Notes: a model not told the origin generated them from the letters alone. 64,000 bases of DNA from a bacterium (GCA_046160485.1 JBJXGV010000070.1:13154-77153), one strand, 5' to 3'; numbered from the stretch's first letter, positions 8,697-40,947 are shown. Made by a program: numbers and translations.

Positions 8697-8745
8697 AGTG
8701 CGAAGATCGACCCCCGTCGAACGCCATCAACCTCGGAGTCACAAG

Positions 8746-14579: not shown

Positions 14580-14581
14580 CC

Positions 14582-15349: not shown

Positions 15350-16077
15350 CGGCGCGGACCGAACCGGCTCAGATCGATTCGCGTTGCGACCTTCGCCCGC
15401 ATATCTTCTTGCAGTTTGTTCACGGGCAACGTGCCGTCCATCAGCACGAAATTGTCGGTTGCGATCATCTGCTCGTACTCGTCCATGATCATTCCCTGGA
15501 AGCGGCGGAAACTTTCGCCGGGATCGAACGACAATCCCAAGTCCATCCCCGCCTCGTAGTGTTTGAGTTTCGGGCGCCCGCCGAGGATGCGATTGACCGC
15601 GACGTCGAGCGGCGCGCGGAAATAGAACGTGATATCGGGAATCGGCGCGAAGCCGTAGAGATTGCGAAGCCACGCCGTCGAGCAGCCGCGAGCCGAGTCG
15701 CGCGCGAACGCCGTGTAGATGTAGCGGTCCGCGAGCACGAGGTAGCCGCTCTGCAACAGCGGGAGAATCTGCCGCTCGCACCGGTCCGCGAAATCGGCGG
15801 AGTGCAGAAGCGAGAACGTGACGGGCGTCAGGAGCCGGCGGCGTTTTCCGCGCCGCGTCGCCGCCTTGACGAGCAGCGACGAATTCCACTCGGTGAAGTG
15901 AATCCGGTACCCCGAGATCTCGAGCCAGCGCTTCAGAAGATAAAGCTGCGTGCTCTTCCCGGAGCCGTCGATTCCTTCGACGACGATGAGCGCGCCAGGA
16001 TAGTCGCGGCCGCCCGTGTTCCGCGCACTGGCGCGGAGCGCCGCCGCGCGCGGCTCTTTTGCGAGGACGCGTGTCAT
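15346..16077 (-). CDS. Thymidylate kinase-like P-loop kinase (paralog 2)
   Basis: LIVVEGIDGSGKSTQ P-loop and LVLADRYIYT motif; 4-nt overlap with paralog 1. Confidence 0.7.
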   Translation of the reverse strand: MTRVLAKEPRAAALRASARNTGGRDYPGALIVVEGIDGSGKSTQLYLLKRWLEISGYRIHFTEWNSSLLVKAATRRGKRRRLLTPVTFSLLHSADFADRCERQILPLLQSGYLVLADRYIYTAFARDSARGCSTAWLRNLYGFAPIPDITFYFRAPLDVAVNRILGGRPKLKHYEAGMDLGLSFDPGESFRRFQGMIMDEYEQMIATDNFVLMDGTLPVNKLQEDMRAKVATRIDLSRFGPRR

Positions 16078-16213
16078 GACGGTGAGATTACACGCTGCAC
16101 AGCGAACGAGGGAAGCGATGAACGCGCCCCGAGTGTGACAATTCCGTGGTGGTGCGTGGCACCACGAGTGTGCAGAGGAATCGCGACGCGAGCGGCCATG
16201 GAGGCGAGCGCGG

Positions 16214-17419
16214 CTAAAGGCCGACGCGCGCGCGCTTGGCGAGAACGGATTCGGAAAGACACGGGCAATCTTGCAGGACCGAAAGCGTCACGGTCCTCCC
16301 GGAAGCAATCGTCGCAACGACCGTCACGGGCGCGCCGCTCCCGAGCTCGCGCGCCAGCTCCACGTCGCCTGTGGCCGTCGGCCGGAACGTCAGCGTCGCA
16401 ACGCCGCCGGAGAATCGCCCCTCGTCGATCGGGATCGGGCCATAGCGGATGTCGTCGTTCTCGAGTGTCACGCTGCCGTCGAGGATCGAACCTTCCTGCT
16501 CCGTGGCGATTCTCAGATCGTAGCTCTCGCCGGCGATCGTCGCGGGAATCGTGATCTCGAATTCGTCGTAGACACGCGCGGCCGTCCAGGACGTTCCGCC
16601 GGTGAAGCAGGTATCGATCACTCCGGCAACGTTCGTCTCCTGCCAGATGAAGAAGCGCACGACGCTCCCCTGATCGAGACGACCCGCGTAGCGAATCGGC
16701 GCGGCGCAACCGAGCGACTCCGCGAGCGCGCCCGTCGGATCGTCGGCGGGATCGACGATGAAGAAGATGGTGCTCGTGTCGGAGACGCCGCCTGTGACCA
16801 GCGGGAGCGTCGGCCCGATCGTCCCGCCCTGCGCGTTCCCGTACGTGATCTGAATGTTCCCGGTAAGCGACGCACCGTCTTGGATGAGGGAGAGCTCGCC
16901 GAGCATTCGCGAGCGCCCGAGCGGGCGGTCGAGCGGGCCCCGCGCGGTGAAGACCGGCGTTTCCAACGCCGCCGCGCCCGAGGCGACGAGGCACTGCTCG
17001 CTCGCGCAGTTCTGCGACACGCTCAAGAGCATCGTTTCGCGGTTCACGAGCGCGCCGTCGAATCGAACGGGCGCCGCGTTGCCGAACGCGTCGATCACCG
17101 CGACGATCGGCGGCGAGAACGGATCGATCGTGAACGAGAACCCAGCATCCGAGAGCGAACCCTGCGCGAGCGCGTACTCGCCGACCGGTTCGCGATTCTC
17201 GAGGACGATCAGTCGGCCGCCGATCGAGGTGTCGCGTTCCTCGAGCTCGAGGATCGCCTCCGTGCCATCGAGGTCCGTGATTTCCCAGCGGCCGGTGATG
17301 GAGTTCGAGGACTGCAGCGGGTCGCCGCTCTCGCCGCAGCCGAAGAGAAGCATGGCGACCGAAAGGACGAGAGGCGCGCGGATCGATCGCGCATTCGATG
17401 AGGACGCTCGCCAGATCAC
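16214..17419 (-). CDS. Hypothetical lipoprotein
   Basis: N-terminal signal with lipobox (LVLSVAMLLFGCGES); Thr/Gly/Ser-rich non-shadow composition; no recognised catalytic motif. Confidence 0.5.
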   Translation of the reverse strand: MIWRASSSNARSIRAPLVLSVAMLLFGCGESGDPLQSSNSITGRWEITDLDGTEAILELEERDTSIGGRLIVLENREPVGEYALAQGSLSDAGFSFTIDPFSPPIVAVIDAFGNAAPVRFDGALVNRETMLLSVSQNCASEQCLVASGAAALETPVFTARGPLDRPLGRSRMLGELSLIQDGASLTGNIQITYGNAQGGTIGPTLPLVTGGVSDTSTIFFIVDPADDPTGALAESLGCAAPIRYAGRLDQGSVVRFFIWQETNVAGVIDTCFTGGTSWTAARVYDEFEITIPATIAGESYDLRIATEQEGSILDGSVTLENDDIRYGPIPIDEGRFSGGVATLTFRPTATGDVELARELGSGAPVTVVATIASGRTVTLSVLQDCPCLSESVLAKRARVGL

Positions 17420-17481
17420 GGCGGCAGTCTACAAGGCGGGCGCGCCGCCCGCAATAACGAAGGTGCGCGCGCCGGGCCGAA

Positions 17482-19023
17482 CTAACCCGGAAGCTTCACG
17501 TCGATCATGAGGAGGCTCCCCTTTGCAACGAGCGAGAACGCGAATTGGAGCGCGAGAATCGCGATGAGGCCGCGCGTGCCGCCGGGCACGCCGCCGCGCG
17601 TCGCGGCGATCACCACGGGCGCAACGAGAAAGAGCCACACGCGCGAAGTCTCCGCGGGGATGAGTCCCGAGAGGTCGAGCACCGCGAGGAACGCGAGCAC
17701 CGCGAGCGTGAAAGGCGCCTCGATGCGGCGTGCGCGAAGGTCGCGAACGGCCGCGAACACCTCGCGCGCGAAAAGCACCGCCACGGCGGGCCCGAGGAAA
17801 ATGAAGAAGTCGGGGAGATTCCAGAAGACCCACGTGAGCCACTCGCGCCGCTGCTCCGGAATCAGAACCTCGTGCTGGATCTTGTAGGCGGCAAGGAAGA
17901 CGCGCGGAATCGAGCAGCCCGTCGCGAGCTGGAACAGCGCGAGGACCGAGGCGAATCCAGCGCCGAGGGCGAGCAGACGCCGCAGGCGCCAGCGCGGCGG
18001 CGGCCGCGTCCCCGCGTCGTCCGCCCGAGCAAATCGCGTGATCGTAATATCCACAATGCCAACAAGTAACAGAAAGAAGCTCGCCACGAACGTAAAGAGG
18101 CAGAGCACCCCGCACAGCGCGCCGGCGGCCACGAGCGACCGGAGTCCGCGCCCGCGGCCGACAAGGAGGAACGCAGCGAGGATCAGAAGCGGATACGCGG
18201 CATCGAACTCCCCGGCGAAGAGGAGGTGCGACGGGATCACGGCTAGGAGGAGCACGGCGGCGCGAGCAGCCGGCGCGCCGCTCAGTCGACGCGCGAAGAA
18301 GAACGCGGGAATCAGCGCCAGGCGCGAGCAGATGACGACGGCGAGCCCAACGATGATCAGGCTCGCGAGCTCGGCCGGAGCCGCGCCCGGAAGATCGCCC
18401 TCGGAGATCCCGAACGCGCGCGCCACGCCGAGCACGCCATCGGTCGCGCCCGCCGACCCGCGGAAGAACTCGAGAATCTGGTGATTGACCGCAACGAGTC
18501 CCGGCGGATGCGTGCGCGCGTGATGCGGCAGTCCCGCCACGATTTCGTGGAACGACGTCAGCATCTCGGGCAGCGACGTGACGGAGCGCGCGGTCCAGAA
18601 GTAGCCGGTCACCCATGGCACGACGTGAATGAGCGGCAGCGTCACGGGCCCGAGCGGCGAGAGTCCGAGAAACGACAGCTCGAGCGCGATCGCGATCAGA
18701 ACGACGAGTGCGAGCATCGCCGCGTCGCCGCGAGGGCGCGAGTCGCGCCGGCGAGTCCACGTCGCGGCCGCCCCCGCGAGCAGGGCGAAGAGGAGTGTCG
18801 TCCCGAGCGCACGCGGCCAAAGCGACGTCGCGACGTACGGCCATCGCCAAGAAGGCGGGCCGACGATCCACGGGAACCGGACCAGAAGAAGAATCGCAAT
18901 CGCCACGGTCGCGGCCGCGGCAGCGATCAGAACGCGCCGGTCGCCGCGAGCGCCGTCGTGCGTCGCGTTCGCGCCATCCTCGCTCACGGTGCGTCCCCGA
19001 TCATGCCGTTGCGCGAAATCCAA
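17482..19023 (-). CDS. Polytopic integral membrane protein, unknown function
   Basis: More than 10 hydrophobic segments (LIAAAAATVAIAILLLV, FTFVASFFLLLVGIV etc.). Start uncertain: the listed start overlaps the upstream SGNH gene by 40 nt. Confidence 0.5.
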   Translation of the reverse strand: MDFAQRHDRGRTVSEDGANATHDGARGDRRVLIAAAAATVAIAILLLVRFPWIVGPPSWRWPYVATSLWPRALGTTLLFALLAGAAATWTRRRDSRPRGDAAMLALVVLIAIALELSFLGLSPLGPVTLPLIHVVPWVTGYFWTARSVTSLPEMLTSFHEIVAGLPHHARTHPPGLVAVNHQILEFFRGSAGATDGVLGVARAFGISEGDLPGAAPAELASLIIVGLAVVICSRLALIPAFFFARRLSGAPAARAAVLLLAVIPSHLLFAGEFDAAYPLLILAAFLLVGRGRGLRSLVAAGALCGVLCLFTFVASFFLLLVGIVDITITRFARADDAGTRPPPRWRLRRLLALGAGFASVLALFQLATGCSIPRVFLAAYKIQHEVLIPEQRREWLTWVFWNLPDFFIFLGPAVAVLFAREVFAAVRDLRARRIEAPFTLAVLAFLAVLDLSGLIPAETSRVWLFLVAPVVIAATRGGVPGGTRGLIAILALQFAFSLVAKGSLLMIDVKLPG

Positions 19024-20018
19024 TCGAAGATGGCGCGCGCCGCGATCGCGTGGCCGGCGGCGTTCATGTGGTTATCGAGCGGCGTGACGGAGAGCGCCGA
19101 GGCGGACTTGCCGAGGAAGGCCGGGAGAAGGTCGAGATGCTCGATAGCCGCGCTCGCGCAGAACGCGACGACTTGCTCGTGCGCCGCGCGAAGCGGATAC
19201 GAATCGTCGAGGCTCACAATAAACGGGAGGACGACGACGCCGAAGCGGCCGCCGCTTGCGCGCACGTCGGTGGCGAGCGTACGAATCCCCGCTTCACACG
19301 CGAGCCAGCCCGGGGCGCGCGCGGCGAAGGTGTCCGCGTAGCGCCCGACGGCGGAACCGCGCGGGGCGATCCCGAATCGCCGCGCGAGCGCCGCGCCGCG
19401 CGACTTGACGAACTGCACCGTGCGGAGGGGCGGAACCCGAAGCCGAGACGCGCGCCGCGGCGCGGGCGCGATCCCCGCGGCCGGAGCGGCCGTTTTCGCC
19501 GCGGCCGCGAGCACCGGCGGATCGACGTCGTTCATGAAGAATCCGACAAGCACCAGATCAGGCGCGCGGGGCGCGACATCGAGCGCGAATGCCTCCGCTT
19601 GCTGCGCCGTATTCGACCCGATCATCGCGAAATTCTCGACCTCCCAGCGGCGATCCGGAAACGCGTCGGCTAGCATTTCCGCGAGCTGCACCGCGAAGGT
19701 TTCCTCATCGCGCACGCCCCAACCGAATGTCATCGAGTCGCCGAGGAGCGCGATTCGAAAGGTGCCGGGCGCCTTCGCGACGTCGAGTTCTGCGCCGCGA
19801 TAGCCCGAGGCGTTCGTGCGCACCGGAACGCCGGCGATCACACCCGTCGCGCTCGGCGGCAAACACGCAAGCCGCGGCGAAGCGGGGTGCGGCACGAGCG
19901 CCATCCCCCACGGGCGGTCGAACGAGCGGAGCCAGAGTTCGCAGCACGCGAGCGCTACGATGAGCGACAGCGCGATGAGCAGTAGGCGTGCGGCCCACTC
20001 GCGAGAGCGTGATATCAT
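18984..20018 (-). CDS. Membrane-anchored SGNH/GDSL-like hydrolase family protein
   Basis: N-terminal TM helix; block I FRIALLGDSMTFGWGV; block V-like DNHMNAAGHA. Confidence 0.7.
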   Translation of the reverse strand: MISRSREWAARLLLIALSLIVALACCELWLRSFDRPWGMALVPHPASPRLACLPPSATGVIAGVPVRTNASGYRGAELDVAKAPGTFRIALLGDSMTFGWGVRDEETFAVQLAEMLADAFPDRRWEVENFAMIGSNTAQQAEAFALDVAPRAPDLVLVGFFMNDVDPPVLAAAAKTAAPAAGIAPAPRRASRLRVPPLRTVQFVKSRGAALARRFGIAPRGSAVGRYADTFAARAPGWLACEAGIRTLATDVRASGGRFGVVVLPFIVSLDDSYPLRAAHEQVVAFCASAAIEHLDLLPAFLGKSASALSVTPLDNHMNAAGHAIAARAIFDWISRNGMIGDAP

Positions 20019-20026
20019 CCGGCGCG

Positions 20027-22141
20027 ATGACCGCCGCGAAAACCTCGGCCGCCGCGCGCGCCGCGCTGATACTCGTCGGCCTTCTTCTCTTCGCGGCGCT
20101 CGAAGGGTTGCTCGCGCTCGCCGGTCTCGGCGGTGCGCGCGATCGCGGCGACCCGTTCCTCGGGTTCAGCCAGGAGTACGCGATCTTCGTTCCCGATGCG
20201 ACGGGCGCGAGGCTCGTCACCGATCCCGCGAAGCGCGAGTCGTTCAACGAGCAGGCGATCGCGCGCACGAAGGCCGAGGGGACGATTCGCATCTTCTGCC
20301 TCGGCGGCTCGGCGACGTACGGGTTTCCGCGCGGCGCGGCCGGCGCGTTCCCCGCGATCCTCGGCGAGAAACTCGCGCGCGCGTTCCCCGCGCGGCGCTT
20401 CGAGGTCGTCAATCTCGGCGGGCTCTCGTACGCGGCGTTTCGCTGCGTCAACGTCGCGCGCGAGGTCGCGCGTTACGAACCCGACGCGATCCTCTACTAC
20501 GACGGGAACAACGAGTACGTCGAGCGGCGCTTCTTCGCGGAGATGCTCGCCGAACCCGCGTGGAGGCGAAACCTGCGCGCGCAAGCGAGCCGCCTTCGAA
20601 CGTACACGCTGCTGAAGAAAGCGATCGATCGCGGCCGCCCCCAGCGCTGGAGCGGCGACGAGTCGGAACTCTTCGGCGTGCGCGTTCTGCGCGAGGACAA
20701 CGAGTCCCTTCCGAGAAGCGATGCGGAGGATCGGGTCATCGAGGAGAGTTTCGCGGCGTCGCTCGCGCAGATGCGCGCGATCGCGCGCGAGGCCGGCGCG
20801 GCCTTCGTCGTCGGCGTCGCCGCTGTGAACGAAGCCGATTGGCCGCCGGGACTTTCGCTTCACGATCCCTCCAAGGACTCGGCGGCGATCGCCGCGTTCG
20901 ACGGGCGCATGCAGGAGGCCGCGCGGCTTCGCGCCTCGGGCGACATCGCGGGCGCCGCGCGCGCGTTCGAGGCCGCGATCGCAATCGATTCGCGTTACGC
21001 AGCCGCTCACTTCGAACTCGGCGGATGCTATCACGCGCTCGGAGAGAGTCACAAGGCGCGCGCGGCGTTCCGCGCGGCGATCGCGTCGGACGGGCTGCCG
21101 ATTCGCGCGACGCCGCGCATTCAGAATGCCGCGCGCGCGTTTGCGGACGCGTCCGGCACGCCGCGCGTCGACATCGACAGCCTCTTCGCGAGCATCTCAC
21201 CGGGCGGCATCATCGGCCGCGAGTTGTTCATCGACTATTGCCACCCGACGCGCGATGGCCACGAGCGGATCGCGGACGCGTTCTTCGCGGTAATCGCACG
21301 CGATCTGCTCGACGCGCCGGGCGCGCCGCCGCCCGCGATCGGCCCGGACGAAGCGCCGAGCGATACGTCGTCCGCGTTCGGCATCGCGTGGGAGGGGCAG
21401 ATGTTCATTCGGCAGGGACGATTCGCTGAGGCCGAGGAGCGCTTTCGCGCCGCGCTCGCGCTCGACGCGGAGCTCTCCTACGCGCTCGAGGGAATGGGCC
21501 GCTGCCTGATCGCGCGCGGCGACTCCGCGGGCGCGGTTTCGTTCTACGAGAGCGCCGCTCGCGTGAACCCGGGCAATCCGACGATCCTCACGAATCTCGC
21601 GAACACATATCTCGCGGTGGGACGCATGGCGGAGAGCGAAGCGGCGATACGCAAAGCAATCGACGCGGATCCGAACTCGGCGAGCGCGCGGCTACTCCTC
21701 GCGCGGCTCCTCGCGCGCAGCGGGCGCGCGCCGGAAGCGCGCACCACGCTCGAGGCCGCGGTCGCGGCGAGCCCGGCGAACGCGGACGCGCGCAAGCTCC
21801 TCGCGCGCCTCCTCGCGGACGCGGGCGAGACCGCCGCCGCCGAGGCGCACTATCGCGAAGCGCTTCGCCTCGACCCGAGCGACGGAGCCGCCGGCTACGC
21901 GCACGCGATTCTCTTGATCAAGCTGGAGCGACCCGACGAAGCGCTCGCGATACTCGACGCGGCGATCGCGCGGAATGCCGACTTCTACCCCGCCATCGGA
22001 GCGGCCGGAGTTCTGCGCATGAACCGCGGAGAGCGCGACGCCGCCGTGCGCCACTTCCGGCGCGTGCTCGAGCTTCACCCTGGCGATCAACTCGCCTCGC
22101 GCTATCTCGCGGTACTCGAGAGTCCGGGGGGCGTGCCGTAA
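20027..22141 (+). CDS. SGNH-like domain protein with C-terminal TPR repeats
   Basis: Start at internal Met (MTAAKTSAAARAALILVGLLLFAAL). IRIFCLGGSATYGF block I variant, DYCHPTRDGH block V; C-terminal half is TPR-like (AEAEERFRAALALD, AEAHYREALRLDP). Divergent from the 18984-20018 gene. Confidence 0.7.
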   Translation: MTAAKTSAAARAALILVGLLLFAALEGLLALAGLGGARDRGDPFLGFSQEYAIFVPDATGARLVTDPAKRESFNEQAIARTKAEGTIRIFCLGGSATYGFPRGAAGAFPAILGEKLARAFPARRFEVVNLGGLSYAAFRCVNVAREVARYEPDAILYYDGNNEYVERRFFAEMLAEPAWRRNLRAQASRLRTYTLLKKAIDRGRPQRWSGDESELFGVRVLREDNESLPRSDAEDRVIEESFAASLAQMRAIAREAGAAFVVGVAAVNEADWPPGLSLHDPSKDSAAIAAFDGRMQEAARLRASGDIAGAARAFEAAIAIDSRYAAAHFELGGCYHALGESHKARAAFRAAIASDGLPIRATPRIQNAARAFADASGTPRVDIDSLFASISPGGIIGRELFIDYCHPTRDGHERIADAFFAVIARDLLDAPGAPPPAIGPDEAPSDTSSAFGIAWEGQMFIRQGRFAEAEERFRAALALDAELSYALEGMGRCLIARGDSAGAVSFYESAARVNPGNPTILTNLANTYLAVGRMAESEAAIRKAIDADPNSASARLLLARLLARSGRAPEARTTLEAAVAASPANADARKLLARLLADAGETAAAEAHYREALRLDPSDGAAGYAHAILLIKLERPDEALAILDAAIARNADFYPAIGAAGVLRMNRGERDAAVRHFRRVLELHPGDQLASRYLAVLESPGGVP

Positions 22142-22180: not shown

Positions 22181-23329
22181 CTAGCGAACGCGGCGGCGGC
22201 GGTTCTCGACGAAGTCCATGAGGATGTATTCGCCGAGCTTGTTGAGCGAGGAGAAGTACGCGCGGCCGCGATTGAGCTCGGTGAGTTGCGTGACGAAATC
22301 CTGGAAGTGCGCGTCGCGCGTCACCATGAACGTCGTGATCGGAATCCGCTTGCGCCGGCAGACGACGGCTTCGTCGAGCGTGCGATTGATGATCTTCGGA
22401 TCGAGGCCGAACGTGTTGCGGTAGATCGTGCCGTCGCTCTCGCGAATCACGGTCGGCTTGCCGTCGGTGATGAGAAAGATCTGCCGGTTCGCCGCCTTCC
22501 GCCGTTCGAGAATCTTGCGCGCCATTTGCAGCGCGGCCTTCGTATTCGTGTGGTACGGCCCGACCTCGAGGTACGGGATGTCGCCGATGGCGATCTCGAA
22601 CGCGTCGTCGCCGAACGCGATCACGTCGAGCGTGTCCTTCGGGTACTTCGTCAGAATCAGTTCCGTCAGCGCAAGCGCGACACGTTTCGCCGGCGTGATC
22701 CGGTCCTCGCCGTAGAGAACCATGCTGTGCGAGATGTCGATGAGGAGCGCGGTCGCGCACGACGACGAGTGTTCGGTCTCGAAGACCTCGAGGTCTTCCT
22801 CCTTCAATCCGCCGCCGAGTAGTCCCGTGCCTTCGAGGCCCGTCAAACTCACCTGCGTTTCGTCGGCGCCGGTCGCGCTCGCGCGCCGAAACGAATTCAG
22901 GAGCGACCCCCTAAAGTCGATGTTGTTGACCTCGTCGCCGAAGCGCCACGGCCGCCGCTCCGAGAGCATCTCGCGGCCATCGCCTTCGCGCGGAACGCGG
23001 TGGTCCCCCGACTCGCCTTTGCGCAGCGCCGAAAACACGTACGAAAGCGCGCTCTTGCGAATGCCGCGCTCCCCTTTTCGCGTCAGCCGCGCGCCGTCGT
23101 CGGAGACCTCGATGTACTCCTCTTCCTCGAGACGCTTTGCAAACTTTTCGACGTCGAAGCCATCGGGGAGATAGCCCTGCTTCGCGAGATAACGCAGCAT
23201 CTCGAGCGCCTCGTCGACATCGCCGTCGCTTTGCAGCAGCAGATGATTGAACAGATCGAGGACGTTCTGGAATTCGGCGAGATCGCGCAGAAGCGCTTCG
23301 TCGAACCGGAAGTAGCGAAAGCGCGACAC
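22181..23329 (-). CDS. VWA domain protein (partner of the ChlI-like ATPase)
   Basis: MIDAS motif LLIDISHSM (DxSxS) followed by a typical von Willebrand A fold region ending FLITDGKPT; about 170-aa N-terminal domain of unknown function. Confidence 0.75.
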   Translation of the reverse strand: MSRFRYFRFDEALLRDLAEFQNVLDLFNHLLLQSDGDVDEALEMLRYLAKQGYLPDGFDVEKFAKRLEEEEYIEVSDDGARLTRKGERGIRKSALSYVFSALRKGESGDHRVPREGDGREMLSERRPWRFGDEVNNIDFRGSLLNSFRRASATGADETQVSLTGLEGTGLLGGGLKEEDLEVFETEHSSSCATALLIDISHSMVLYGEDRITPAKRVALALTELILTKYPKDTLDVIAFGDDAFEIAIGDIPYLEVGPYHTNTKAALQMARKILERRKAANRQIFLITDGKPTVIRESDGTIYRNTFGLDPKIINRTLDEAVVCRRKRIPITTFMVTRDAHFQDFVTQLTELNRGRAYFSSLNKLGEYILMDFVENRRRRVR

Positions 23330-23338
23330 GAGAGCCGG

Positions 23339-24811
23339 CTAGCCCTTCATGTTCTTGAACATGTTCGCGAGCATGTCGCTGTAGCGGACGCGTTGATCGA
23401 GCGCTTCCTTCGCGACGAGCGAGTTCTGGTGCAACCCGTCGAGAACGAACTCCATGACCGTCGCCATTTCTTCTTCGTCCGCGGGCCGCATTTGCTTCTT
23501 CGCGATCGCCTTGAGGCCCGGCACCTTCGACAGCTCCGCGTAGTAGTCCGCAAACGGCATCTCGTCGCTGATCTCGATCCGGCCGCCGCCCGCGAAGTGA
23601 TCGGAGATTTCCTTGTACGGCCCGGGCCCCTTCCCCGGCTCCTCTTTTCCGTCCTTCGACTTGTAGACCGCCGGAAAATGCCGCTGGAAGACCTTGTTGA
23701 TCGCCTTGCCGATGAGCGTGAGCGAAACGATCGTCGGTCCCTCCTGCTCGCCTTCGTAGACCAGCTCGATCTTTCCGGTGATCGCGGGGAGCGCGGAGTA
23801 GAGATCGCACATGCGCGGCGTCCAGCGTTCCTCGCCGGTCAGCAAGACGCGCCGCTCGATGTTCGAGAGCAGGTTCTCGTATGCGGAGATCGGAAGCCGC
23901 GCCGAAACGCCGCTCGATTGATCGACGAACTCGCTCTTCCGCGCCTCGAACGCGATCTCCTCGACGATCTCTTGGATGAAACGCGGCATGCGAAACGGCT
24001 GGCCGCGATCGACCCACGCCTCTTGAGCGGTGATCGCGATCGCGTCGTCGACCGTCTGCGGGTAGTGCGTGATGATCTGCGAGTCGATGCGGTCTTTGAG
24101 CGGCGTGATGATGTTCCCGCGATTCGTGTAGTCCTCGGGATTCGCCGTGAAGACGAGCAACAGATCGAGCGGCAGCCGAATCGGAAATCCGCGAATCTGC
24201 AGATCCTTCTCCTCGAGGATGTTGAGGAGCCCGACCTGAATGCGCGGCTGAAGATCCGGCAGCTCGTTGAGCGCGAAAATCCCGCGATTCGTGCGCGGCA
24301 CGATGCCGTAGTGGATGACGCCTTCGTCGGAGAGGTCGAGCCTCTCGCGCGCGGCCTTGATCGGGTCGATGTCGCCGATCAGGTCCGCCATCGTCACGTC
24401 GGGCGTCGCGAGCTTCTCCTGATACCGCTCCTCGCGCGTGATCCATCGAATCTCGATCTGCTCGCCGAGTTCGGAGGCGAGCCGCCGGCAACGCGAACAG
24501 ACGGGATGAAGCGGATCGTCGTTGAGCGCGCAACCCTCGATCGCGGGAACGCGCTCGTCGAGAAGCGACGTCAGCGCGCGAATGATGCGCGTTTTCGCCT
24601 GACCGCGAAGGCCGAGGAGGATCAGGTCGTGTTTCGCGAGCAGCGCGTTTTCGATTTGAGGAATCACGGTCCGGTCGTAGCCGACGATTCCGGGGAAGAC
24701 CGGCTCCTTGGCGCGGATCTTCCGCGCGAGGTTGCGCCGGATCTCATCCTTTACGGAGAGCGCGGCATAACCGGTCTTCTTCAGTTCTCTAAGCGTCTTC
24801 GGGTGAGGCAT
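23339..24811 (-). CDS. Mg-chelatase ChlI-like AAA+ ATPase
   Basis: FPGIVGYDRTVIPQIENALLAKHDLILLGLRGQAKT Walker A-region variant typical of ChlI/BchI-like ATPases; GIFALNELPDL Walker B-like. 10 nt upstream of the VWA gene. Confidence 0.75.
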   Translation of the reverse strand: MPHPKTLRELKKTGYAALSVKDEIRRNLARKIRAKEPVFPGIVGYDRTVIPQIENALLAKHDLILLGLRGQAKTRIIRALTSLLDERVPAIEGCALNDDPLHPVCSRCRRLASELGEQIEIRWITREERYQEKLATPDVTMADLIGDIDPIKAARERLDLSDEGVIHYGIVPRTNRGIFALNELPDLQPRIQVGLLNILEEKDLQIRGFPIRLPLDLLLVFTANPEDYTNRGNIITPLKDRIDSQIITHYPQTVDDAIAITAQEAWVDRGQPFRMPRFIQEIVEEIAFEARKSEFVDQSSGVSARLPISAYENLLSNIERRVLLTGEERWTPRMCDLYSALPAITGKIELVYEGEQEGPTIVSLTLIGKAINKVFQRHFPAVYKSKDGKEEPGKGPGPYKEISDHFAGGGRIEISDEMPFADYYAELSKVPGLKAIAKKQMRPADEEEMATVMEFVLDGLHQNSLVAKEALDQRVRYSDMLANMFKNMKG

Positions 24812-34670: not shown

Positions 34671-36041
34671 TCAAGACGAGGCGACAATTTCCTTCGTCGA
34701 GCGGCGCTTGACCGAAGTGAGGACTGGCAGTTCGAGATAGCGTTCGACTTCCTCAGGGCTCTTGAGCGAGTGGTCGAGGTTCTCGAAGAAGAACGCGAGT
34801 CCGATGCCGACGAGAAGCGAGAGGATCGGACCGAGCGAGAGGCGCACGAGGTCGCGCGGGTTCGACGCGCGGCCGTAGCCCGGCTCGCTGATCAAGAAAA
34901 TGTGGTAGTCGGCCATGCTGCGCGCGCTCGCGAGCGCCTGGCCCTTCATGTACGTCAGGTCGCCGAGCGACTTCTTGCTCGACTCGAGGTCCTTGTCGAG
35001 GTCGTTGAGGTCGCGGTCCATCATCGGGAGAATCCGGAGCCGCTCCTCGGCTTCGTTCATGCGGCGCTGCACGACATCGCGCTGCATCTCGATGCGCGAC
35101 AACTCGTCCTTCTTCGCAACGAGAATGCGCGCCCGCTCCGACTCGGCGAACTGTTGAAGCTCCGCGATCTCCTTGTCGACCTGTTCGACCAGCGGATGGC
35201 GATCGGTGTACGTCGCGAGAAGCCGCTCGCGCTCCAACTCGCGGACGGAGAGGTCTTTCAGAACCGAGCCGAGGATTCCCGCGTCGACCCGGCCCCACGA
35301 CATGAAACGCTGCTCGCCCCCAAGCTTGTCGATCTTCTCCTCGGCGCTGATCTCGGCGCGAAGCGCCACGATCTGCGTTTCGAAATTCACGACATCGTTG
35401 CGGAGCTGCGCCAGAACCGCGTACTGAATCCCGAGCTCGCCGGGGATATCCGCCACGTCGTTCTCTTGCTTGATCTCGAGCCGGCGGTTGAGGAGGTCCG
35501 TGACCTTCGCGCCCGTGCGCTGCAGCTCGGCATCGAAGAAGTCGGCGAGGTCCGGGACGGTGAAAAGCTCCTTGTGGTACTCGAGATACGCCGTAGTCAC
35601 GGCCTGATTCACCTTGAACGATTCTTCGGGATCCTGCGACGTGTACGAAATCGAGAGCATGCGCGACTTCGGTATCGGCGCCGGCTTGAGGTTCGCGCCG
35701 ATCACTTTGTATTTCGGCTCGCCCTTCGCGGCGGCGGAGTCGAGAAGCGCCTGAGCGCGCTCGATCACCGGGCGCGACTTGATCAACTCGCACTCGGAGG
35801 ATGACAACTCGTCGGCGTTAAGCGGAACGATGACGCGGTCGATAGCGCTGCCGCGCTGCACGCCCCAGAGCATGATCTTCGAGTCGGAGGTGTAGACGAT
35901 CGGCTGCAAGAGGAGCGCGGACCCGACGACGGTACTCGTCACGCCGACCATCGCCAGAATCAACGCCTTCCTCCGGAAGATGACCATGAGGAAGTCGCGA
36001 AGAGATATCTGTGCTTCTTGACGTTCTGTGTACTCGGCCAC
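34671..36041 (-). CDS. Polysaccharide chain-length determinant (Wzz/GumC-like) protein
   Basis: N-terminal TM and ISLRDFLMVIFRRKALILAMVG signature, long coiled-coil periplasmic region, C-terminal TM; no tyrosine-kinase domain. Confidence 0.7.
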   Translation of the reverse strand: MAEYTERQEAQISLRDFLMVIFRRKALILAMVGVTSTVVGSALLLQPIVYTSDSKIMLWGVQRGSAIDRVIVPLNADELSSSECELIKSRPVIERAQALLDSAAAKGEPKYKVIGANLKPAPIPKSRMLSISYTSQDPEESFKVNQAVTTAYLEYHKELFTVPDLADFFDAELQRTGAKVTDLLNRRLEIKQENDVADIPGELGIQYAVLAQLRNDVVNFETQIVALRAEISAEEKIDKLGGEQRFMSWGRVDAGILGSVLKDLSVRELERERLLATYTDRHPLVEQVDKEIAELQQFAESERARILVAKKDELSRIEMQRDVVQRRMNEAEERLRILPMMDRDLNDLDKDLESSKKSLGDLTYMKGQALASARSMADYHIFLISEPGYGRASNPRDLVRLSLGPILSLLVGIGLAFFFENLDHSLKSPEEVERYLELPVLTSVKRRSTKEIVASS

Positions 36042-36210: not shown

Positions 36211-38271
36211 TCAGGGCGCGGGAGCCGCCGGCGCGACCGCGTAGACGCGATACCGCGGAGACTCGTACGCCACCGGCAGATCGAGGAGCCCTCGCGCGCG
36301 CGCCGCCGGGCCCGCGGCGGCGGTTGCCTCCAAATCGTGGACGACGAACAGCGGCCCACCGCTTGCCGGGCCGGCAAGATCAGCCCGAGTCACGACGCCG
36401 CGAGCGAAGAGCGAGTCCTCGATCGCAGCGCGGCGATCGATCTCGGCGCGCGGATAGCCCCACTCGCGCGCGAGGTGATCGGCCCCGGCGAAAACGCGGC
36501 GGGGAGCCAAGACCGAGAGTCGCATCCGCTCGTGGACATCCGCGTCGCGGCACTGCAAGAAGATCGCATCGCGCGGTGTCGCGCGGCGCACCCATTCGTA
36601 GAGAGCCCGCTCCTCGGGGCCGACGCCGTAATCGTTCGGCAGCGCGAGGTAACCGAAGAGCATCGCGGCATTCGCGGGGACGAGGATCGCGGAAGCCAGA
36701 AGGAGGCGACGAGCGCCGGGGCGGAATCGCCGCGTCCAATCGGCCAGCGCCCAGCCGGCCGGAAGCGCGAGGCCGAGCACGAGGAAGTAGGGGTTCTTGT
36801 CCATCGTCTGCGCGCGCTCGCTCCCAGGAAGCCGCAGGAGCATTGCGAGAAGCACGAGCGCGACACCAGTGAACAATACGAATCGCCCCGAAGGCTCGGC
36901 GTGCCGGAAGAGATCACGGAATCGAAACGGCGCGAGTAGGAAGAAGGCGCTGCCGACGGCGGCGATGGCGACCGCACGCCGGACGTTGACGTCGAGGAGT
37001 TGAGAGAGCACCTCCTCGCGGCCGCCGACGCGCAGAAGGTACGGTGCGAAGAGCGCAGTGACCGCGACCGTCGCCAAAACCGGCAGCACGACGCGCCGAA
37101 GAGGAACGAGTCGAACGCGGGAATCGCCGAACGCGATCGTCGCGGCGAGACCGAGCCCCATTGCGGGCGCCAGGAAGAGCGCGACATCGGGATGGAATGC
37201 CCACACGCCCGCGAGCGCGATTGCGGCGAGCGGCGCAGCGGAGCGCGACTCCCCCGCCACGGCGCGAGCGAAATAGAGCATCAAGAACACGGCGAGCGCG
37301 AGGCCGATCGAGAACGCGCTCCCAACGTAGAACTTCGAGAGAAAGAACGGCTGCGCGCCGTCGAGCGGCGAGAGAAAGTCGATCCAGCGGAGAAGGTCGA
37401 TCGGGAACTGATCGTAGATGCGCGCGAGTTCGGCGCCACCCTTTTCCGAGCCGATGAGCGCGCGCACCGCTTTGAGAGGCAGGAAGAGCCAGAAGAGCGC
37501 GTTCAATCCAAGAATGCCCATCAGCACGGCGAAGCGGTTCGACGCGGCGTCCGCACGGAATCGCGCGGAGAGCAGATGCAGGCCGAGTACGAGCGCAACG
37601 AGCGCCTGCACGTTGATCAAGACGAAGAACGGGAACGGCGACGACCCGGCCAGTTGCGACAGGCCCGCGAGGTACAGGTGGAATAGCCAGAAGTAGTGCA
37701 GCGGCAGGCCGGCGAAGAACGGATCCTGGGGCGGTATTCCGAAGTCGAGAATCTCGATGGCGAAGGCGGCGTGGAACCAGGCATCGGAGCGAACCCGCCA
37801 CCATTCGCTCGCAATCGGCAGCGACGCGATGAGCGGCACGAGCGCCGCGAGCAGCGGCGCGACCGATCGCCAGTCGCGCGCGCGTTCATCCGCGGCCGGC
37901 GGCCGGATGCGGCGCGCGAGAAGCAGCGCGGCGGCGAGCGATACGGTCGTGCACGGAACAAATACCGCGCGCGGCGAGGATGCGACGGCGACGCCTGCTA
38001 CATAGAGAAGGACCGACACGACGGGGCCGAGCGCCAGGGCAATGAGGACGCCGTCGATGGAGCGCGCGTGCGGCGCGAAGAGCGCCCACAAGAGGATCCC
38101 GGGGATGACGGCCGCCAGCAGATAGGCGCCGAGTATCCGAGCCAGGACGAATGCGGGGACGAGCGTGCCCGCGCCCCAGAGGAGCAACGCCGCGAGCGAC
38201 GCAACGGTTGCGACCATGCGCGCGCTCGGAAAGCGGCGCGACTCGAGAGTTGCGTCGACGGTGCGGACCAT
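36211..38271 (-). CDS. Large polytopic membrane protein, unknown function (polysaccharide locus)
   Basis: 686 aa with numerous hydrophobic helices and a C-terminal soluble region; start 5 nt from the stop of the O-antigen-ligase-like gene. Confidence 0.5.
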   Translation of the reverse strand: MVRTVDATLESRRFPSARMVATVASLAALLLWGAGTLVPAFVLARILGAYLLAAVIPGILLWALFAPHARSIDGVLIALALGPVVSVLLYVAGVAVASSPRAVFVPCTTVSLAAALLLARRIRPPAADERARDWRSVAPLLAALVPLIASLPIASEWWRVRSDAWFHAAFAIEILDFGIPPQDPFFAGLPLHYFWLFHLYLAGLSQLAGSSPFPFFVLINVQALVALVLGLHLLSARFRADAASNRFAVLMGILGLNALFWLFLPLKAVRALIGSEKGGAELARIYDQFPIDLLRWIDFLSPLDGAQPFFLSKFYVGSAFSIGLALAVFLMLYFARAVAGESRSAAPLAAIALAGVWAFHPDVALFLAPAMGLGLAATIAFGDSRVRLVPLRRVVLPVLATVAVTALFAPYLLRVGGREEVLSQLLDVNVRRAVAIAAVGSAFFLLAPFRFRDLFRHAEPSGRFVLFTGVALVLLAMLLRLPGSERAQTMDKNPYFLVLGLALPAGWALADWTRRFRPGARRLLLASAILVPANAAMLFGYLALPNDYGVGPEERALYEWVRRATPRDAIFLQCRDADVHERMRLSVLAPRRVFAGADHLAREWGYPRAEIDRRAAIEDSLFARGVVTRADLAGPASGGPLFVVHDLEATAAAGPAARARGLLDLPVAYESPRYRVYAVAPAAPAP

Positions 38272-38275
38272 GCGA

Positions 38276-39730
38276 TCAGGCCGCGGCGCGCTTCCGCCGG
38301 CGTTCCTCGTCGACGAGGCGCATGCAGACGAGTGTGAGCCCGAAGATTACCCACATCATGTAGACGTAGCTCGGCGATCGCTGATAGTCGGTGCGGAGCT
38401 GGACCACGACGAATGTCGCGATCTGAACGTGCAACACCGTGAGCAATCCGGACGCGAAACCTCCTCGTTCCAGATTTCCTCGCATCCGCTTGCCGCTCTC
38501 CCAAAGCAGTTTGATCAGAATAAGGACGAATGGAATTGTCCCCAATATGCCGACCGTGATCAGCGACCAGAGATAGCCGTTGTGCGGCTGCGCGATGACC
38601 CGGTAGTCGAAATAGAGTCCGTGACCGACGAAGATGTGCTCCTTAAACGCCGCCCATCCGAGCGCCCACACCTCGGTGCGCGTATCGGGAACCAGGTTCG
38701 TTCCGACTTCCGTCGCCGCCATTCGATTCAGAATCGAGTCGCCGTCTCTGTACGTGGATAAGTAAAAATCGAAGATCGGCAAGATCGTGAAGAGGGCCAG
38801 GAAGACGAATGTGTACCGAACGATCTTGAATTCGCGGCGCGTCAGCCACAGGAGATACCCGATGGCAATCGCCAGACCGATGAGACCCCCGCGATTCGCG
38901 GTCGAGACGAGCGCGAAGATGTCGAGAATGAGAATCGCCGTGTAGAGCACGCGTCGCGTCACCGTCGTCGCGCGGTAGAGGCGGAATAAGAGCAGAGGGA
39001 ACAAGATCGCGCACATATCCGCAAGGGAGTCGTGGCCGCCGACGACACCCGCCATACGCCGCACGCTTCCCGCGCCATATGTGTAACGCACTCCGATCCA
39101 GCCCGGAATGATCGTCGCGTACGGAAAGAAGACCTCGACGATCACCGTGACGAAAACAAGAAGCCCCATGATCGTCAGCGCGAAGGTCACGCGATCGAGG
39201 TCGCGTTCGTCGTTGACGAGGTTGTAGGTGAGGTACATCACCATGTAGGCGCTGATGTAGAAGAACATGTTCAGCATCCCTTCGCGGAACCACTGCACGT
39301 TGGGAGCGTTGTACTGCGAAACCACAAGCGTGATCACCGTCGCCACCAAGAGTCCGTCGAGCATCGTCTTGCCGCGAACGCGCAACTCGCCCGTCGAGAT
39401 TCGCAAGAACCAGAACATCGTGATGAGGAACACGATCATCGTGTTCGTGCTGCCGAAGCTCGTGTACGCGGGGAACGGGAACATGATGATGAAGAACGAG
39501 AGACCGAACGCCGGAGGCGCAAGCAGAAGAAGCGTCACGAGCCCCACGCCGAGAAGGCCCTTGATGCCGCGTTTATTCGGACTGACGATTTGCCCGCCGA
39601 GGATGTAGGCGACAGCGAGCCCGACGAGCCAGAAGACGTGAGTGCGAAGAAACTCGACGCCGCTCGACACGCCGGCGAGGGCGCGCCGCACCGGCGACCG
39701 TGGCGGACGTGTGGCGATCGCCCGGTCCAT
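38276..39730 (-). CDS. O-antigen ligase/polymerase family (Wzy_C-like) membrane protein
   Basis: Start at internal ATG 39728-39730 (MDRAIA), overlapping the upstream stop by 1 nt (TGATG). STANRGGLIGLAIAIG and FVGHGLYFDYRVIAQPHNGYLWSLI motifs. Visibly lower GC than flanks. Confidence 0.7.
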   Translation of the reverse strand: MDRAIATRPPRSPVRRALAGVSSGVEFLRTHVFWLVGLAVAYILGGQIVSPNKRGIKGLLGVGLVTLLLLAPPAFGLSFFIIMFPFPAYTSFGSTNTMIVFLITMFWFLRISTGELRVRGKTMLDGLLVATVITLVVSQYNAPNVQWFREGMLNMFFYISAYMVMYLTYNLVNDERDLDRVTFALTIMGLLVFVTVIVEVFFPYATIIPGWIGVRYTYGAGSVRRMAGVVGGHDSLADMCAILFPLLLFRLYRATTVTRRVLYTAILILDIFALVSTANRGGLIGLAIAIGYLLWLTRREFKIVRYTFVFLALFTILPIFDFYLSTYRDGDSILNRMAATEVGTNLVPDTRTEVWALGWAAFKEHIFVGHGLYFDYRVIAQPHNGYLWSLITVGILGTIPFVLILIKLLWESGKRMRGNLERGGFASGLLTVLHVQIATFVVVQLRTDYQRSPSYVYMMWVIFGLTLVCMRLVDEERRRKRAAA

Positions 39731-40947
39731 CAGCGACTCGCCGCCGGCAACGCCGCCGCGCTCGCACCGTTTGTCGCGACGCCTTCGGCCTCGCGCGCAT
39801 CGAACGCGATGAGCGATTCCGGGAGCGCGGCCGCGACGAAACGCGCCATCTTCGCCGCGCCCTCGTCGGTCCAGTGACAGTAGTCCGCGAAATCGGTGTC
39901 CGCGGTGGCCAGATTCGCGGCGACATCGACAAGAGGCGCTTCGAGCGAGTCGGCGACCTCGCGAGTGATTGCGTTGTATCGCGCCATGCCGGCGATCATC
40001 CCATCCACCGTCAAGTAGGGCAACCAACGATGCGCGGAGATGGAATCCGCGAGTGTGATCGGGCGATCCGGTCCGAAGCGAATCTGCTGCGTCACGAAGA
40101 CGACGTCGGCGCCGCGCGCGCGAGCGACGCGAGCGATCTCTCCTAAGCGCTCCCGGTAGACGGCTTCGGCTTCGGGAAGCGTGCGATCGCTGCGCGGCGT
40201 ATCCGGCATCTCGGGCGGCGTGTCGCCGAGCTTCGCGTGGATCTTCGCGAGGAGAAGGCTGCGTGCAAGCAACGCGGGAGGCCTCGATTCGAAACCGAGG
40301 AATCGCCGCTGAATTTCCGCGTGTCCAACGGTGTAGTCGGCGCGAAACCCGGGCGCCGCGCTCGGCTGAAGGTCGTTGAGTCCGGCGAACACGACGACGA
40401 CATCGGGCTGCACGATGTCGAGGTCGATGATCTGAAGTTTCAAGAGCATCTCGATCGTCGTGTAGCCGGGGTGGCCGCCGTTGACGACCTCGATCGTCGT
40501 CCCGGGAAATCGCTGCGCGAGAAATTTCTCGAGCTGGCGCGGCCACATCGCGTCGTCGTTGGTCACGCAAACATCGAACGTCGTGGAGCCGCCGATCGCG
40601 AGAACGCGAACGACGCCGGGCGGCTTCGGGCTCGCGAACTCGGCGCCGCGATAACCGTGCGAGTTGACGCCCGCGCCGCGGCCGCGAGCCGCCGTCGCAC
40701 CGCCGGGCCGCAGCACGCCGATCAGATACGGATGCGGCATGACAATCTCCAGGAGCCTTCGCGCTTCCACGTAGCGTTCGACGGCGGGCGTGACCATCCA
40801 GCGGCCGAAGCGAATGCGATCGCGCACTCGCACCGCGGCTTCGAGAACGCCGAAGAGCGCCAACGCGATCGCGAACATCGCGGCCGCGGTCGCAACTCGT
40901 CTCATGAGAGTCCGGCTCCCCTGCTCACTCCGCGGCGTCGCTGGCAT
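39730..40947 (-). CDS. Membrane-anchored SGNH-like hydrolase family protein (paralog of the 20027-22141 N-domain)
   Basis: RVLAIGGSTTFDV block I variant, GGHPGY block II, NDL block III, DYCHWTDEGA block V. Start may be the internal Met at about 40905. Confidence 0.65.
   Translation of the reverse strand: MPATPRSEQGSRTLMRRVATAAAMFAIALALFGVLEAAVRVRDRIRFGRWMVTPAVERYVEARRLLEIVMPHPYLIGVLRPGGATAARGRGAGVNSHGYRGAEFASPKPPGVVRVLAIGGSTTFDVCVTNDDAMWPRQLEKFLAQRFPGTTIEVVNGGHPGYTTIEMLLKLQIIDLDIVQPDVVVVFAGLNDLQPSAAPGFRADYTVGHAEIQRRFLGFESRPPALLARSLLLAKIHAKLGDTPPEMPDTPRSDRTLPEAEAVYRERLGEIARVARARGADVVFVTQQIRFGPDRPITLADSISAHRWLPYLTVDGMIAGMARYNAITREVADSLEAPLVDVAANLATADTDFADYCHWTDEGAAKMARFVAAALPESLIAFDAREAEGVATNGASAAALPAASR

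Follow-up and report, generated by a model that had tools for sequence, protein, structure and literature searches.

A stretch of 64,000 nucleotides from a bacterial genome (GCA_046160485.1 JBJXGV010000070.1:13154-77153; G+C content 66%), hereafter called the window, was found to carry three genes, SGNH1, SGNH2 and SGNH3, whose products resemble SGNH hydrolases. An earlier reading of this DNA, made from the sequence alone and referred to below as the sequence-only reading, had described three such genes, one with a G-D-S and two with a G-G-S motif in block I, and each with an N-terminal hydrophobic helix. The open reading frame (ORF) calls and a Kyte-Doolittle scan confirmed this description; each protein displayed one strong hydrophobic helix at its N-terminus and none elsewhere. 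The genes and their key positions, counted from the first letter of the window, are listed below (TPR, tetratricopeptide repeat).

18984..20018, minus strand: SGNH1, 344 aa (NCBI MFN0152316.1; ORF call and Pfam)
~19930-19990, minus strand: SGNH1 anchor helix, residues 12-30 (hydrophobicity scan)
19734-19736, minus strand: SGNH1 Ser95, in block I LGDSMTF, a canonical G-D-S
19068-19070, minus strand: SGNH1 His317, in the last block, L-D-N-H
20027..22141, plus strand: SGNH2-TPR, an SGNH domain with TPRs (NCBI MFN0152317.1, named 'tetratricopeptide repeat protein')
~20090-20130, plus strand: SGNH2 anchor helix (hydrophobicity scan)
20309-20311, plus strand: SGNH2 predicted catalytic Ser, in block I LGGSATY
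20879-21085, plus strand: SGNH2 internal TPR pair, residues 291-359 of the 710-aa form (AlphaFold2 model)
21242-21244, plus strand: SGNH2 predicted catalytic His, in the last block, D-Y-C-H
21374-22120, plus strand: SGNH2 C-terminal TPRs, about seven, residues 456-704 (AlphaFold2 model)
39730..40947, minus strand: SGNH3 (NCBI MFN0152331.1, 391 aa; ORF call and Pfam)
~40830-40845, minus strand: SGNH3 anchor helix (hydrophobicity scan)
40585-40587, minus strand: SGNH3 Ser107, in block I IGGSTTF (G-G-S-T-T)
39874-39876, minus strand: SGNH3 His344, in the last block, D341-Y-C-H344

Three start codons are available to SGNH2, at 19988, 20009 and 20027, resulting in proteins of 717, 710 or 704 aa; NCBI uses the GTG at 20009 (710 aa), and the ATG at 20027 gives the 704-aa form. 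SGNH3 comprises 405 aa as an ORF extending to 40947 and 391 aa from the ATG at 40905, which is the NCBI start. SGNH1 and SGNH2 are divergent, and their start codons are 8 nt apart (window 20016-20029), so that the predicted promoter of each gene must lie inside the coding region of the other. The same 8-nt head-to-head spacing was observed at positions 9990-10003 of L002, one of two orthologous loci (L001 and L002) with which the window was compared.

The three proteins were found to constitute one family over their full length, as the sequence-only reading had proposed in calling them paralogues, and nothing in the comparisons assigned them to unrelated families. SGNH1 and SGNH3 scored 51.6 and 70.7 bits against Pfam Lipase_GDSL_2 (PF13472), above the gathering cut-off of 32.9 bits, and SGNH2 fell just under it with 31.0 bits. 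Pairwise BLASTP among the three gave identities of 28-33% (E 1e-8, 3e-13 and 1e-6). Alignment of profiles with hhalign matched the SGNH3 family to the SGNH1 family over 314 columns (99.9% probability, E 2.7e-37) and to the SGNH2 family over 336 columns (99.8% probability, E 3.4e-30), and both alignments began within the anchor helix and took in the pre-domain that follows. When a hidden Markov model (HMM) of each family was run against the 419 six-frame ORFs of the window, only SGNH1-3 were recovered, and a fourth member was not found among them. Each of the three has separate orthologues of 50-88% identity in other assemblies; by this sequence comparison the proteins, which are approximately 30% identical to one another, are therefore old paralogues and not recent duplicates.

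AlphaFold2 models, built with the family alignments as input, were obtained for SGNH3 (pLDDT 93.8, pTM 0.90) and SGNH2 (pLDDT 86.0, pTM 0.78), and the three-layer alpha/beta/alpha fold of SGNH proteins was found. Block II reads N129-F-A131 in SGNH1 (within N-F-A-M-I-G), N135-L-G137 in SGNH2 and N142-G-G144 in SGNH3, and block III reads N163-D164 in SGNH1, N-N-E (N168-E169) rather than N-D in SGNH2, and N177-D178 in SGNH3, the pre-domain of which also carries an N-S-x-G-Y-R motif. No orthologue in any of the three alignments departs from the nucleophilic Ser or from the His of block V, which removes the possibility that these residues are absent from the family. In SGNH1, residues D94, S95 and H317 are invariant across 33 homologues; for SGNH2, SGNH3 and their orthologues, conservation is complete or reaches at least 90% at the Asn-x-Gly of block II, the Asn of block III and the Asp at His-3, and 147 representatives of the wider subfamily considered below likewise keep these positions (N, G, N-D and D) in at least 90% of cases. 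The N-x-G second block and D-x-x-H last block that had been ascribed to all three proteins held for SGNH2 and SGNH3, both of which end in D-Y-C-H, and broke down for SGNH1, where Ala takes the place of the Gly and the last block is D-x-H. Judged by sequence and predicted fold, SGNH1-3 are members of the SGNH superfamily that possess all of its defining features, with minor deviations in SGNH1.

Since SGNH1-3 all keep the Ser nucleophile, the positions of the oxyanion hole and the His that serves as general base, they are predicted to be active serine hydrolases that form an acyl-enzyme, and we regard it as very probable that they are active members of a G-G-S-T-T subfamily. Two features of SGNH1 tell against this prediction: Ala131 occupies the position at which block II normally holds Gly, and the Asp lies at His-2 and is replaced by Asn in 4 of the 12 closest orthologues. 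As this Asp is both displaced and not conserved, a Ser-His dyad is possible in SGNH1. The block II backbone NH of Ala131 could still serve the oxyanion hole, by analogy with SmEst24, in which a backbone NH can fill that role (PMC9487903).

The Gly-Gly-Ser of block I had been singled out as atypical for GDSL esterases. Only SGNH1, with G-D-S-M, has the G-D-S-(L) form, and measured against the Pfam consensus the description of the other two is accurate. However, the four residues by which the SGNH superfamily is defined do not include the Asp of G-D-S (PMC9487903), and G-G-S proved to be the majority state among relatives. The 52 homologues of SGNH3 mostly carry G-G-S, the remainder being six G-A-S, two G-D-S and one G-E-S; among homologues of SGNH2 aligned at block I (n=14), 13 have G-G-S and one has G-A-S; and in the 147 best representatives, 144 of which could be aligned here, G-G-S occurs in 120, G-A-S in 19 and G-D-S in three. 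The size of the group became evident when the SGNH3-family profile was run with HMMER, exhaustively, against 1.84 billion cluster representatives: 88,245 proteins passed E<=1e-3, 41,650 passed E<=1e-10 and 5,566 passed E<=1e-30, the last figure being a count of clusters at 50% identity.

Two enzymes of solved structure also carry G-G-S. CgnD (PDB 8A2N), a hydrolase of the crocagin pathway for peptides made by the ribosome and modified after translation (RiPPs) in Chondromyces crocatus, has the triad Ser79/His328/Asp325 and was assayed as a slow peptide-cleaving hydrolase (PMC10070186); the segment aligned with block I is LVGGSTVFG. RiCE17 (RiCEX; PDB 6HFZ) of Roseburia intestinalis, the best PDB sequence match of SGNH1, is an active CE17 2-O-acetyl-mannan esterase with the triad Ser41/His193/Asp190 and an oxyanion hole made up of Ser41-N, Gly81-N and Asn110 (bioRxiv 10.1101/788067), and its segment IAFLGGSITQG places Ser41 after Gly39-Gly40. 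The similarity between RiCE17 and SGNH1 is limited to the first half of the SGNH domain, and RiCE17 differs in having a C-terminal CBM35 that takes part in the active site, in lacking an anchor and pre-domain, and in being a catabolic enzyme of a mannan utilisation locus; Pfam detected no CBM domain in SGNH1-3, which on this count do not belong to CE17. As read from these alignments, the second Gly of G-G-S occupies the place of an Asp without a catalytic role. Within the subfamily this is the usual condition, and it stands out only when set against the generic GDSL consensus. The exchange is thus compatible with ordinary esterase chemistry, as in RiCE17, and is not the special feature it had been taken for.

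The loss of the Asp of G-D-S, together with the poor placement of the CgnD Ser relative to its His in the crystal, could be taken to mean that the G-G-S proteins are catalytically dead scaffolds. Against this, hundreds of divergent sequences retain the Ser and His as well as the Gly of block II, the Asn of block III and the Asp of block V, and RiCE17 is a fully active esterase with the same motif; on both grounds we rejected the pseudo-enzyme reading, to which we assign next to no probability. A sequencing or frame artefact as the source of G-G-S was ruled out as well, because the motif is retained in orthologues of 57-88% identity from independent assemblies.

Beyond block I, the subfamily possesses a signature that includes (i) a Glu closing the anchor helix, found in 129 of 132 representatives and in at least 90% of each of the three families, (ii) an Arg four residues past this Glu, common in SGNH3-type representatives (115/133), (iii) an Arg seven residues upstream of the catalytic Ser, present in all 143 representatives that could be compared (143/143), and (iv) the motifs N-x-x-G-(F/Y)-R in the pre-domain, G-G-S-T-T, N-x-G, N-D and D-x-x-H. 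The conservation of a charged residue in a membrane anchor suggests a specific contact, either with a partner protein or with the catalytic domain. No curated model exists for the G-G-S-T subfamily. A profile scan of GTDB genomes with a 16-sequence alignment found three loci. Longer architectures were noted in P0137, P0140, P0143, P0144, P0151, P0153, P0158 and P0161 (650-705 aa) and in P0171 and P0176 (962-985 aa): some of these members contain tandem double SGNH stretches, and in others the SGNH domain lies at the C-terminus of a protein of approximately 970 aa.

SGNH2 departs from its two paralogues in its repeats. In the model, four extra helices, equivalent to two TPR motifs, are inserted between the fifth strand and block V, and the larger TPR array follows the SGNH domain. 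As architectural variants go, this SGNH-TPR fusion with its inner TPR pair is a modest one, and functional precedents exist for it. TviD, the O-acetyltransferase of the Vi antigen and thus of a surface polysaccharide, has an N-terminal SGNH-like domain, a long TPR region and a conserved D-x-x-H in block V; it is cytoplasmic, associates with the membrane via its TPRs, has a Cys in G-S-C as nucleophile position and lacks recognisable blocks II and III (PMC8760489). By comparison with that description, SGNH2 is anchored at its N-terminus, carries its Ser in a G-G-S motif, keeps blocks II and III intact and has an additional TPR pair within the SGNH domain, and a GT4 gene of the TviE type adjacent to SGNH2 was found neither in the window nor in L002.

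Several membrane proteins are encoded next to SGNH1 and SGNH3, and the neighbours there are the following.

16214..17419, minus strand: predicted lipoprotein with an LLFGC lipobox, downstream of the 11-segment membrane protein and in the same direction
17482..18987, minus strand: 11-segment membrane protein, 501 aa from the GTG at 18987 or 513 aa from the TTG at 19023
34671..36041, minus strand: chain-length determinant/polysaccharide co-polymerase-like protein with membrane helices at both ends (TIGR03007)
36211..38271, minus strand: 686-aa membrane protein, about 15 predicted membrane-spanning segments, weakly similar to DUF2298/Chlor_Arch_YYY (GT-C-like)
38276..39730, minus strand: Wzy_C-family polytopic membrane protein of the O-antigen ligase/polymerase type (PF04932, 54.8 bits; cut-off 31.7)

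SGNH3 is the first gene of a tight minus-strand block that continues with the Wzy_C gene, the 686-aa membrane protein gene and the chain-length determinant gene. Its TGA shares one base with the ATG of the Wzy_C gene (TGATG), the start of the 686-aa protein lies 4 nt past the Wzy_C stop, and a gap of 169 nt separates the genes for the 686-aa protein and the chain-length determinant. Similarly, the stop of SGNH1 overlaps the GTG start of the 11-segment membrane protein gene (GTGA). The placement of these genes next to membrane proteins and within a Wzz/ligase locus, as put forward in the sequence-only reading, was thus borne out. The chain-length determinant matched TIGR03007 over its full length (E 2.6e-17), under the curated cut-off, and Wzz at 18.4 bits, also under the cut-off. 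The 686-aa protein reached 24.2 bits against DUF2298 (PF10060; cut-off 27.8), and its Chlor_Arch_YYY match was likewise below threshold; the 11-segment protein matched no Pfam family and showed similarity only to the STT3-like TIGR04154 (E 0.0011, 17 bits). Neither protein had a sequence match in the PDB, and no mutual homology was detected between them. A GT-C assignment of the two is best treated as a lead from sequence. The lipoprotein encoded at 16214-17419 belongs to no Pfam or NCBIfam family, and its conserved position in the gene order suggests that it may be part of an SGNH1 module. Convergent on SGNH2-TPR is a pair of genes (window 22181-24811, minus strand) for a VWA-domain protein (382 aa) and an AAA_5 ATPase (490 aa), which is kept in L002, where the VWA protein also matches Rv0959_3rd.

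A related metagenome-assembled genome (MAG), represented by a 438-kb JGI metagenome contig, contains orthologues of 53-66% identity in the same gene orders and repeats the 1-nt and 4-nt overlaps as well as the 8-nt head-to-head spacing. In L001 the SGNH3 and Wzy_C genes overlap by 1 nt as in the window, and the orthologue of the 686-aa protein is 55% identical. In L002 the orthologue of the 11-segment membrane protein, 60% identical, overlaps that of SGNH1 by 4 nt, and a lipoprotein counterpart (362 aa, 44% identical) again lies downstream of it. Apart from these shared features, L001 (JGI Ga0394882_0000025) holds at 16281-21182 a Dlt-like cassette that is convergent on the chain-length determinant gene and consists of genes for an AMP-binding enzyme (526 aa), an 81-aa carrier protein (…GGILDSISTLKL…), an 838-aa membrane protein without a Pfam family and a 408-aa ALGX/GDSL_2 protein; at the matching place the window has moaA and a gene for a metallo-beta-lactamase-fold protein. 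L002 has at 17471-18574 an extra 367-aa ALGX/GDSL_2 gene after an HhH-GPD glycosylase gene, and the window counterpart of that interval is a 601-aa S41-peptidase/TPR-like protein (27446-29251, minus strand). Elsewhere in the window, at 8680-10995 on the plus strand, a 771-aa protein with a Lamin Tail Domain and a C-terminal FlgD_ig domain is encoded, and a relative's locus, L010, carries a PorV and a Por_Secre_tail protein (13969-17223). The two observations hint at a lineage within the FCB group that has type IX secretion.

More distant relatives were found in varied surroundings. Some of these are of the glycan or lipopolysaccharide kind, among them that of the Planctomycetota relative described below. 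A member of the SGNH1 family with 38% identity (P0080) lies among GT2 and GT4 genes, a polysaccharide deacetylase gene and a methyltransferase gene; P0085 occurs with two more SGNH genes, a carbamoyltransferase, DUF268 and an ABC-2 exporter; and P0028, of the SGNH3 family, abuts a 642-aa membrane protein and has YfhO, PMT_2-TPR and DegT genes close by. Of a different or less informative kind are the surroundings of P0021, which lies beside an ALGX-like gene and a methyltransferase gene, and of P0065, which is one of two convergent SGNH-TPR genes that adjoin type IX secretion components. In L015 (4601-10870), SGNH genes of 466, 336 and 356 aa are interleaved with a gene for a DUF5989 mini-protein and a DUF268 methyltransferase-like gene, with a carbamoyltransferase upstream and an ABC-2 exporter downstream, which suggests that several SGNH paralogues serve this glycan locus at the same time.

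The orientation of the anchors was evaluated by counting Lys and Arg (K/R), and Asp and Glu, in the 15 residues on each side of the anchor helix. The SGNH1 family averaged 2.8 K/R before the helix and 1.9 after it, and the SGNH2 family 2.9 and 1.7, values that favour an N-in/C-out topology and hence point to a periplasmic location of the SGNH domains. We therefore consider a model in which SGNH1-3 would be tethered to the outer face of the cytoplasmic membrane. The Ser would attack an ester and the oxyanion would be held by the NH of the Ser, the backbone NH in block II and the Asn of block III; the His, with or without the Asp, would act as base. O-acyl groups would be removed from, or less likely transferred to, envelope glycans, lipid-linked or nascent, that the membrane proteins encoded alongside process. 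In this lineage SGNH3 is co-translated with the Wzy_C protein, the DUF2298-like protein and the chain-length determinant, and SGNH1 with the 11-segment membrane protein; the TPR array of SGNH2 may provide a protein-protein scaffold, as in AlgK-AlgX or TviD-TviE. A role of SGNH1-3 as membrane-tethered esterases acting on envelope glycans is given an even chance on the basis of these data.

The sequence-only reading had left undecided whether acyl groups on polysaccharides are transferred or removed. Periplasmic O-acyltransferases of the AlgX/AlgJ, PatB or OatA C-domain type, or in the case of SGNH2 an O-acetyltransferase combining SGNH and TPR regions as TviD does, would account for several observations. 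Weak ALGX (PF16822) matches were obtained in the C-terminal half (E 6.8e-4 and 0.035), AlgX was matched in the PDB at E 0.028, and the L001 cassette with its ALGX-like protein adjoins the chain-length determinant gene. The D-x-H of SGNH1 may resemble the Asp-x-His spacing of AlgX. AlgX and AlgJ, of the machinery that O-acetylates alginate, are periplasmic SGNH-like enzymes that act on nascent exopolysaccharide; AlgJ is anchored by a single N-terminal helix, the Asp-x-His motif precedes the Ser in both sequences, and both depend on the MBOAT protein AlgI. The presence of SGNH and TPR regions in one chain is the TviD architecture (PMC8760489) and parallels the pairing of AlgK, a TPR protein, with AlgX, which works bound to AlgK (PMC9734138); SGNH2 would mimic that pair in one chain.

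The partner that such transfer calls for did not appear, though. Among the window ORFs that were scanned, Pfam identified no gene for an MBOAT, AT3 or exosortase protein; an AlgI-type MBOAT or an AT3 gene was likewise not found in L001 or L002, and none of the SGNH genes or orthologues examined has an MBOAT or AT3 gene beside it. PatB, Ape1, the OatA C-domain and the SGNH domain of OafB, which are O-acetyl transferases and esterases of peptidoglycan and O-antigen, have a canonical G-D-S and occur with an AT3 or MBOAT translocase, either as a fusion or as a pair (PMC9487903, PMC9833829), of which no counterpart was detected near SGNH1-3. The ALGX matches, at 14.2 and 19.8 bits, stayed under the cut-off of 26.5, and SGNH3 scored 28.4 bits against DUF459/PatB (PF04311; cut-off 27.2) with a faint similarity confined to residues 258-286 and no single stretch that passes, so that the ALGX and DUF459 matches lie at or below threshold without a significant stretch. 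TviD, moreover, is cytoplasmic and has a Cys in place of the Ser and no blocks II and III, all points on which SGNH2 differs. Sequence by itself does not separate transferases from esterases, and we judge the acyltransferase explanation unlikely. Removal of acyl groups is favoured over transfer, both because no MBOAT or AT3 partner lies near the genes in the window, L001 or L002, and because the closest characterised structural neighbours are mostly carbohydrate esterases.

Those structural neighbours, namely CE3, CE17 and acetyl-xylan esterases together with CgnD, also bear on a second alternative, in which SGNH1-3 would be lipid-directed esterases, similar to lysophospholipase L1 or acyloxyacyl hydrolase, with membrane lipids, lipoproteins or lipid A as substrates. 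The JGI annotation calls relatives 'lysophospholipase L1-like esterase', a membrane tether places the active site beside lipids, and a Planctomycetota relative adjoins a lipid A acyltransferase gene and a CMP-sugar synthetase gene of the CMP-Kdo synthetase type. The JGI names are automatic, however, the best structural neighbours are of the carbohydrate-esterase kind, and the operon partners in this lineage are of glycan-assembly types; this alternative therefore appears to us rather unlikely.

CgnD raises the third alternative, that SGNH1-3 are peptide or amide hydrolases that process a secreted or membrane peptide. CgnD, the closest relative of solved structure, shares full-length similarity with SGNH1-3, the pre-domain N-x-x-G-(F/Y)-R, G-G-S-T, N-x-G and D-x-x-H. 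Unlike the window proteins, CgnD is soluble, has no N-terminal anchor (its match begins at position 50 of the profile) and belongs to a peptide natural-product operon, whereas the window genes lie beside membrane glycan-assembly genes. Its turnover is very slow and its authors detected neither substrate binding nor labelling by phenylmethylsulfonyl fluoride, so that peptidase may not be the ancestral activity. Crocagin-type RiPP genes (CgnA precursor, CgnB/CgnE, CgnC dioxygenase) were not recognised among the Pfam-scanned ORFs of the window or in L001 and L002, although short precursor peptides were not specifically searched for. Peptide hydrolysis is in our estimate very improbable.

Several observations weigh against the role on envelope glycans itself. 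The SGNH3 family is ambiguous in topology, with 2.5 K/R before the helix and 3.3 after it, and SGNH3 has five K/R after its helix, where the family has a conserved R-V-x-x-R stretch. Synteny between the two MAGs extends over the whole region, which makes conserved order alone weak evidence, and the GT-C-like labels of both large membrane proteins come from sub-threshold matches only. Among relatives of 28-38% identity, P0037, P0020 and P0063 have neighbours unrelated to glycans; the Wzy_C link, as judged from these distant gene neighbourhoods, is therefore lineage-specific. CgnD, the nearest relative of solved structure, is an unanchored protein with slow activity on a peptide, and a gene for an MBOAT or AT3 partner could lie in another part of the genome. 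The proposed connection to polysaccharide O-acylation thus agrees with the gene context and with the several relatives that occur in glycan or lipopolysaccharide loci, but the link is circumstantial and the substrate is read from context only. Of the two reactions envisaged earlier, removal is the better supported.

Returning to membrane-tethered esterases on envelope glycans, a more far-reaching version would make the subfamily the dedicated membrane-tethered partners of Wzy_C and GT-C-like glycan-assembly proteins. The anchor Glu and the nearby Arg would dock on the partner, and lipid-linked repeat units would be acylated or de-acylated at polymerisation or ligation without an MBOAT or AT3 protein. 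We regard this proposal as speculative and distinctly improbable. If it were true, SGNH2 would be the single-chain equivalent of the AlgX-AlgK pair, and a widespread, so far unrecognised step of envelope-glycan assembly would be exposed.

The main value of the present analysis is one of correction: a Gly-Gly-Ser in block I is no sign of an aberrant or dead SGNH enzyme, but the hallmark of a very large and almost unstudied subfamily, within which we found a single solved and assayed member, CgnD. As things stand, this amounts to a routine refinement of annotation in an uncultured bacterium. What the window adds is two clean, conserved and translationally coupled pairings of an SGNH protein with a polytopic membrane protein, as well as an SGNH-TPR fusion; if the pairings prove general, they would give an unstudied family a testable role in the modification of envelope glycans.

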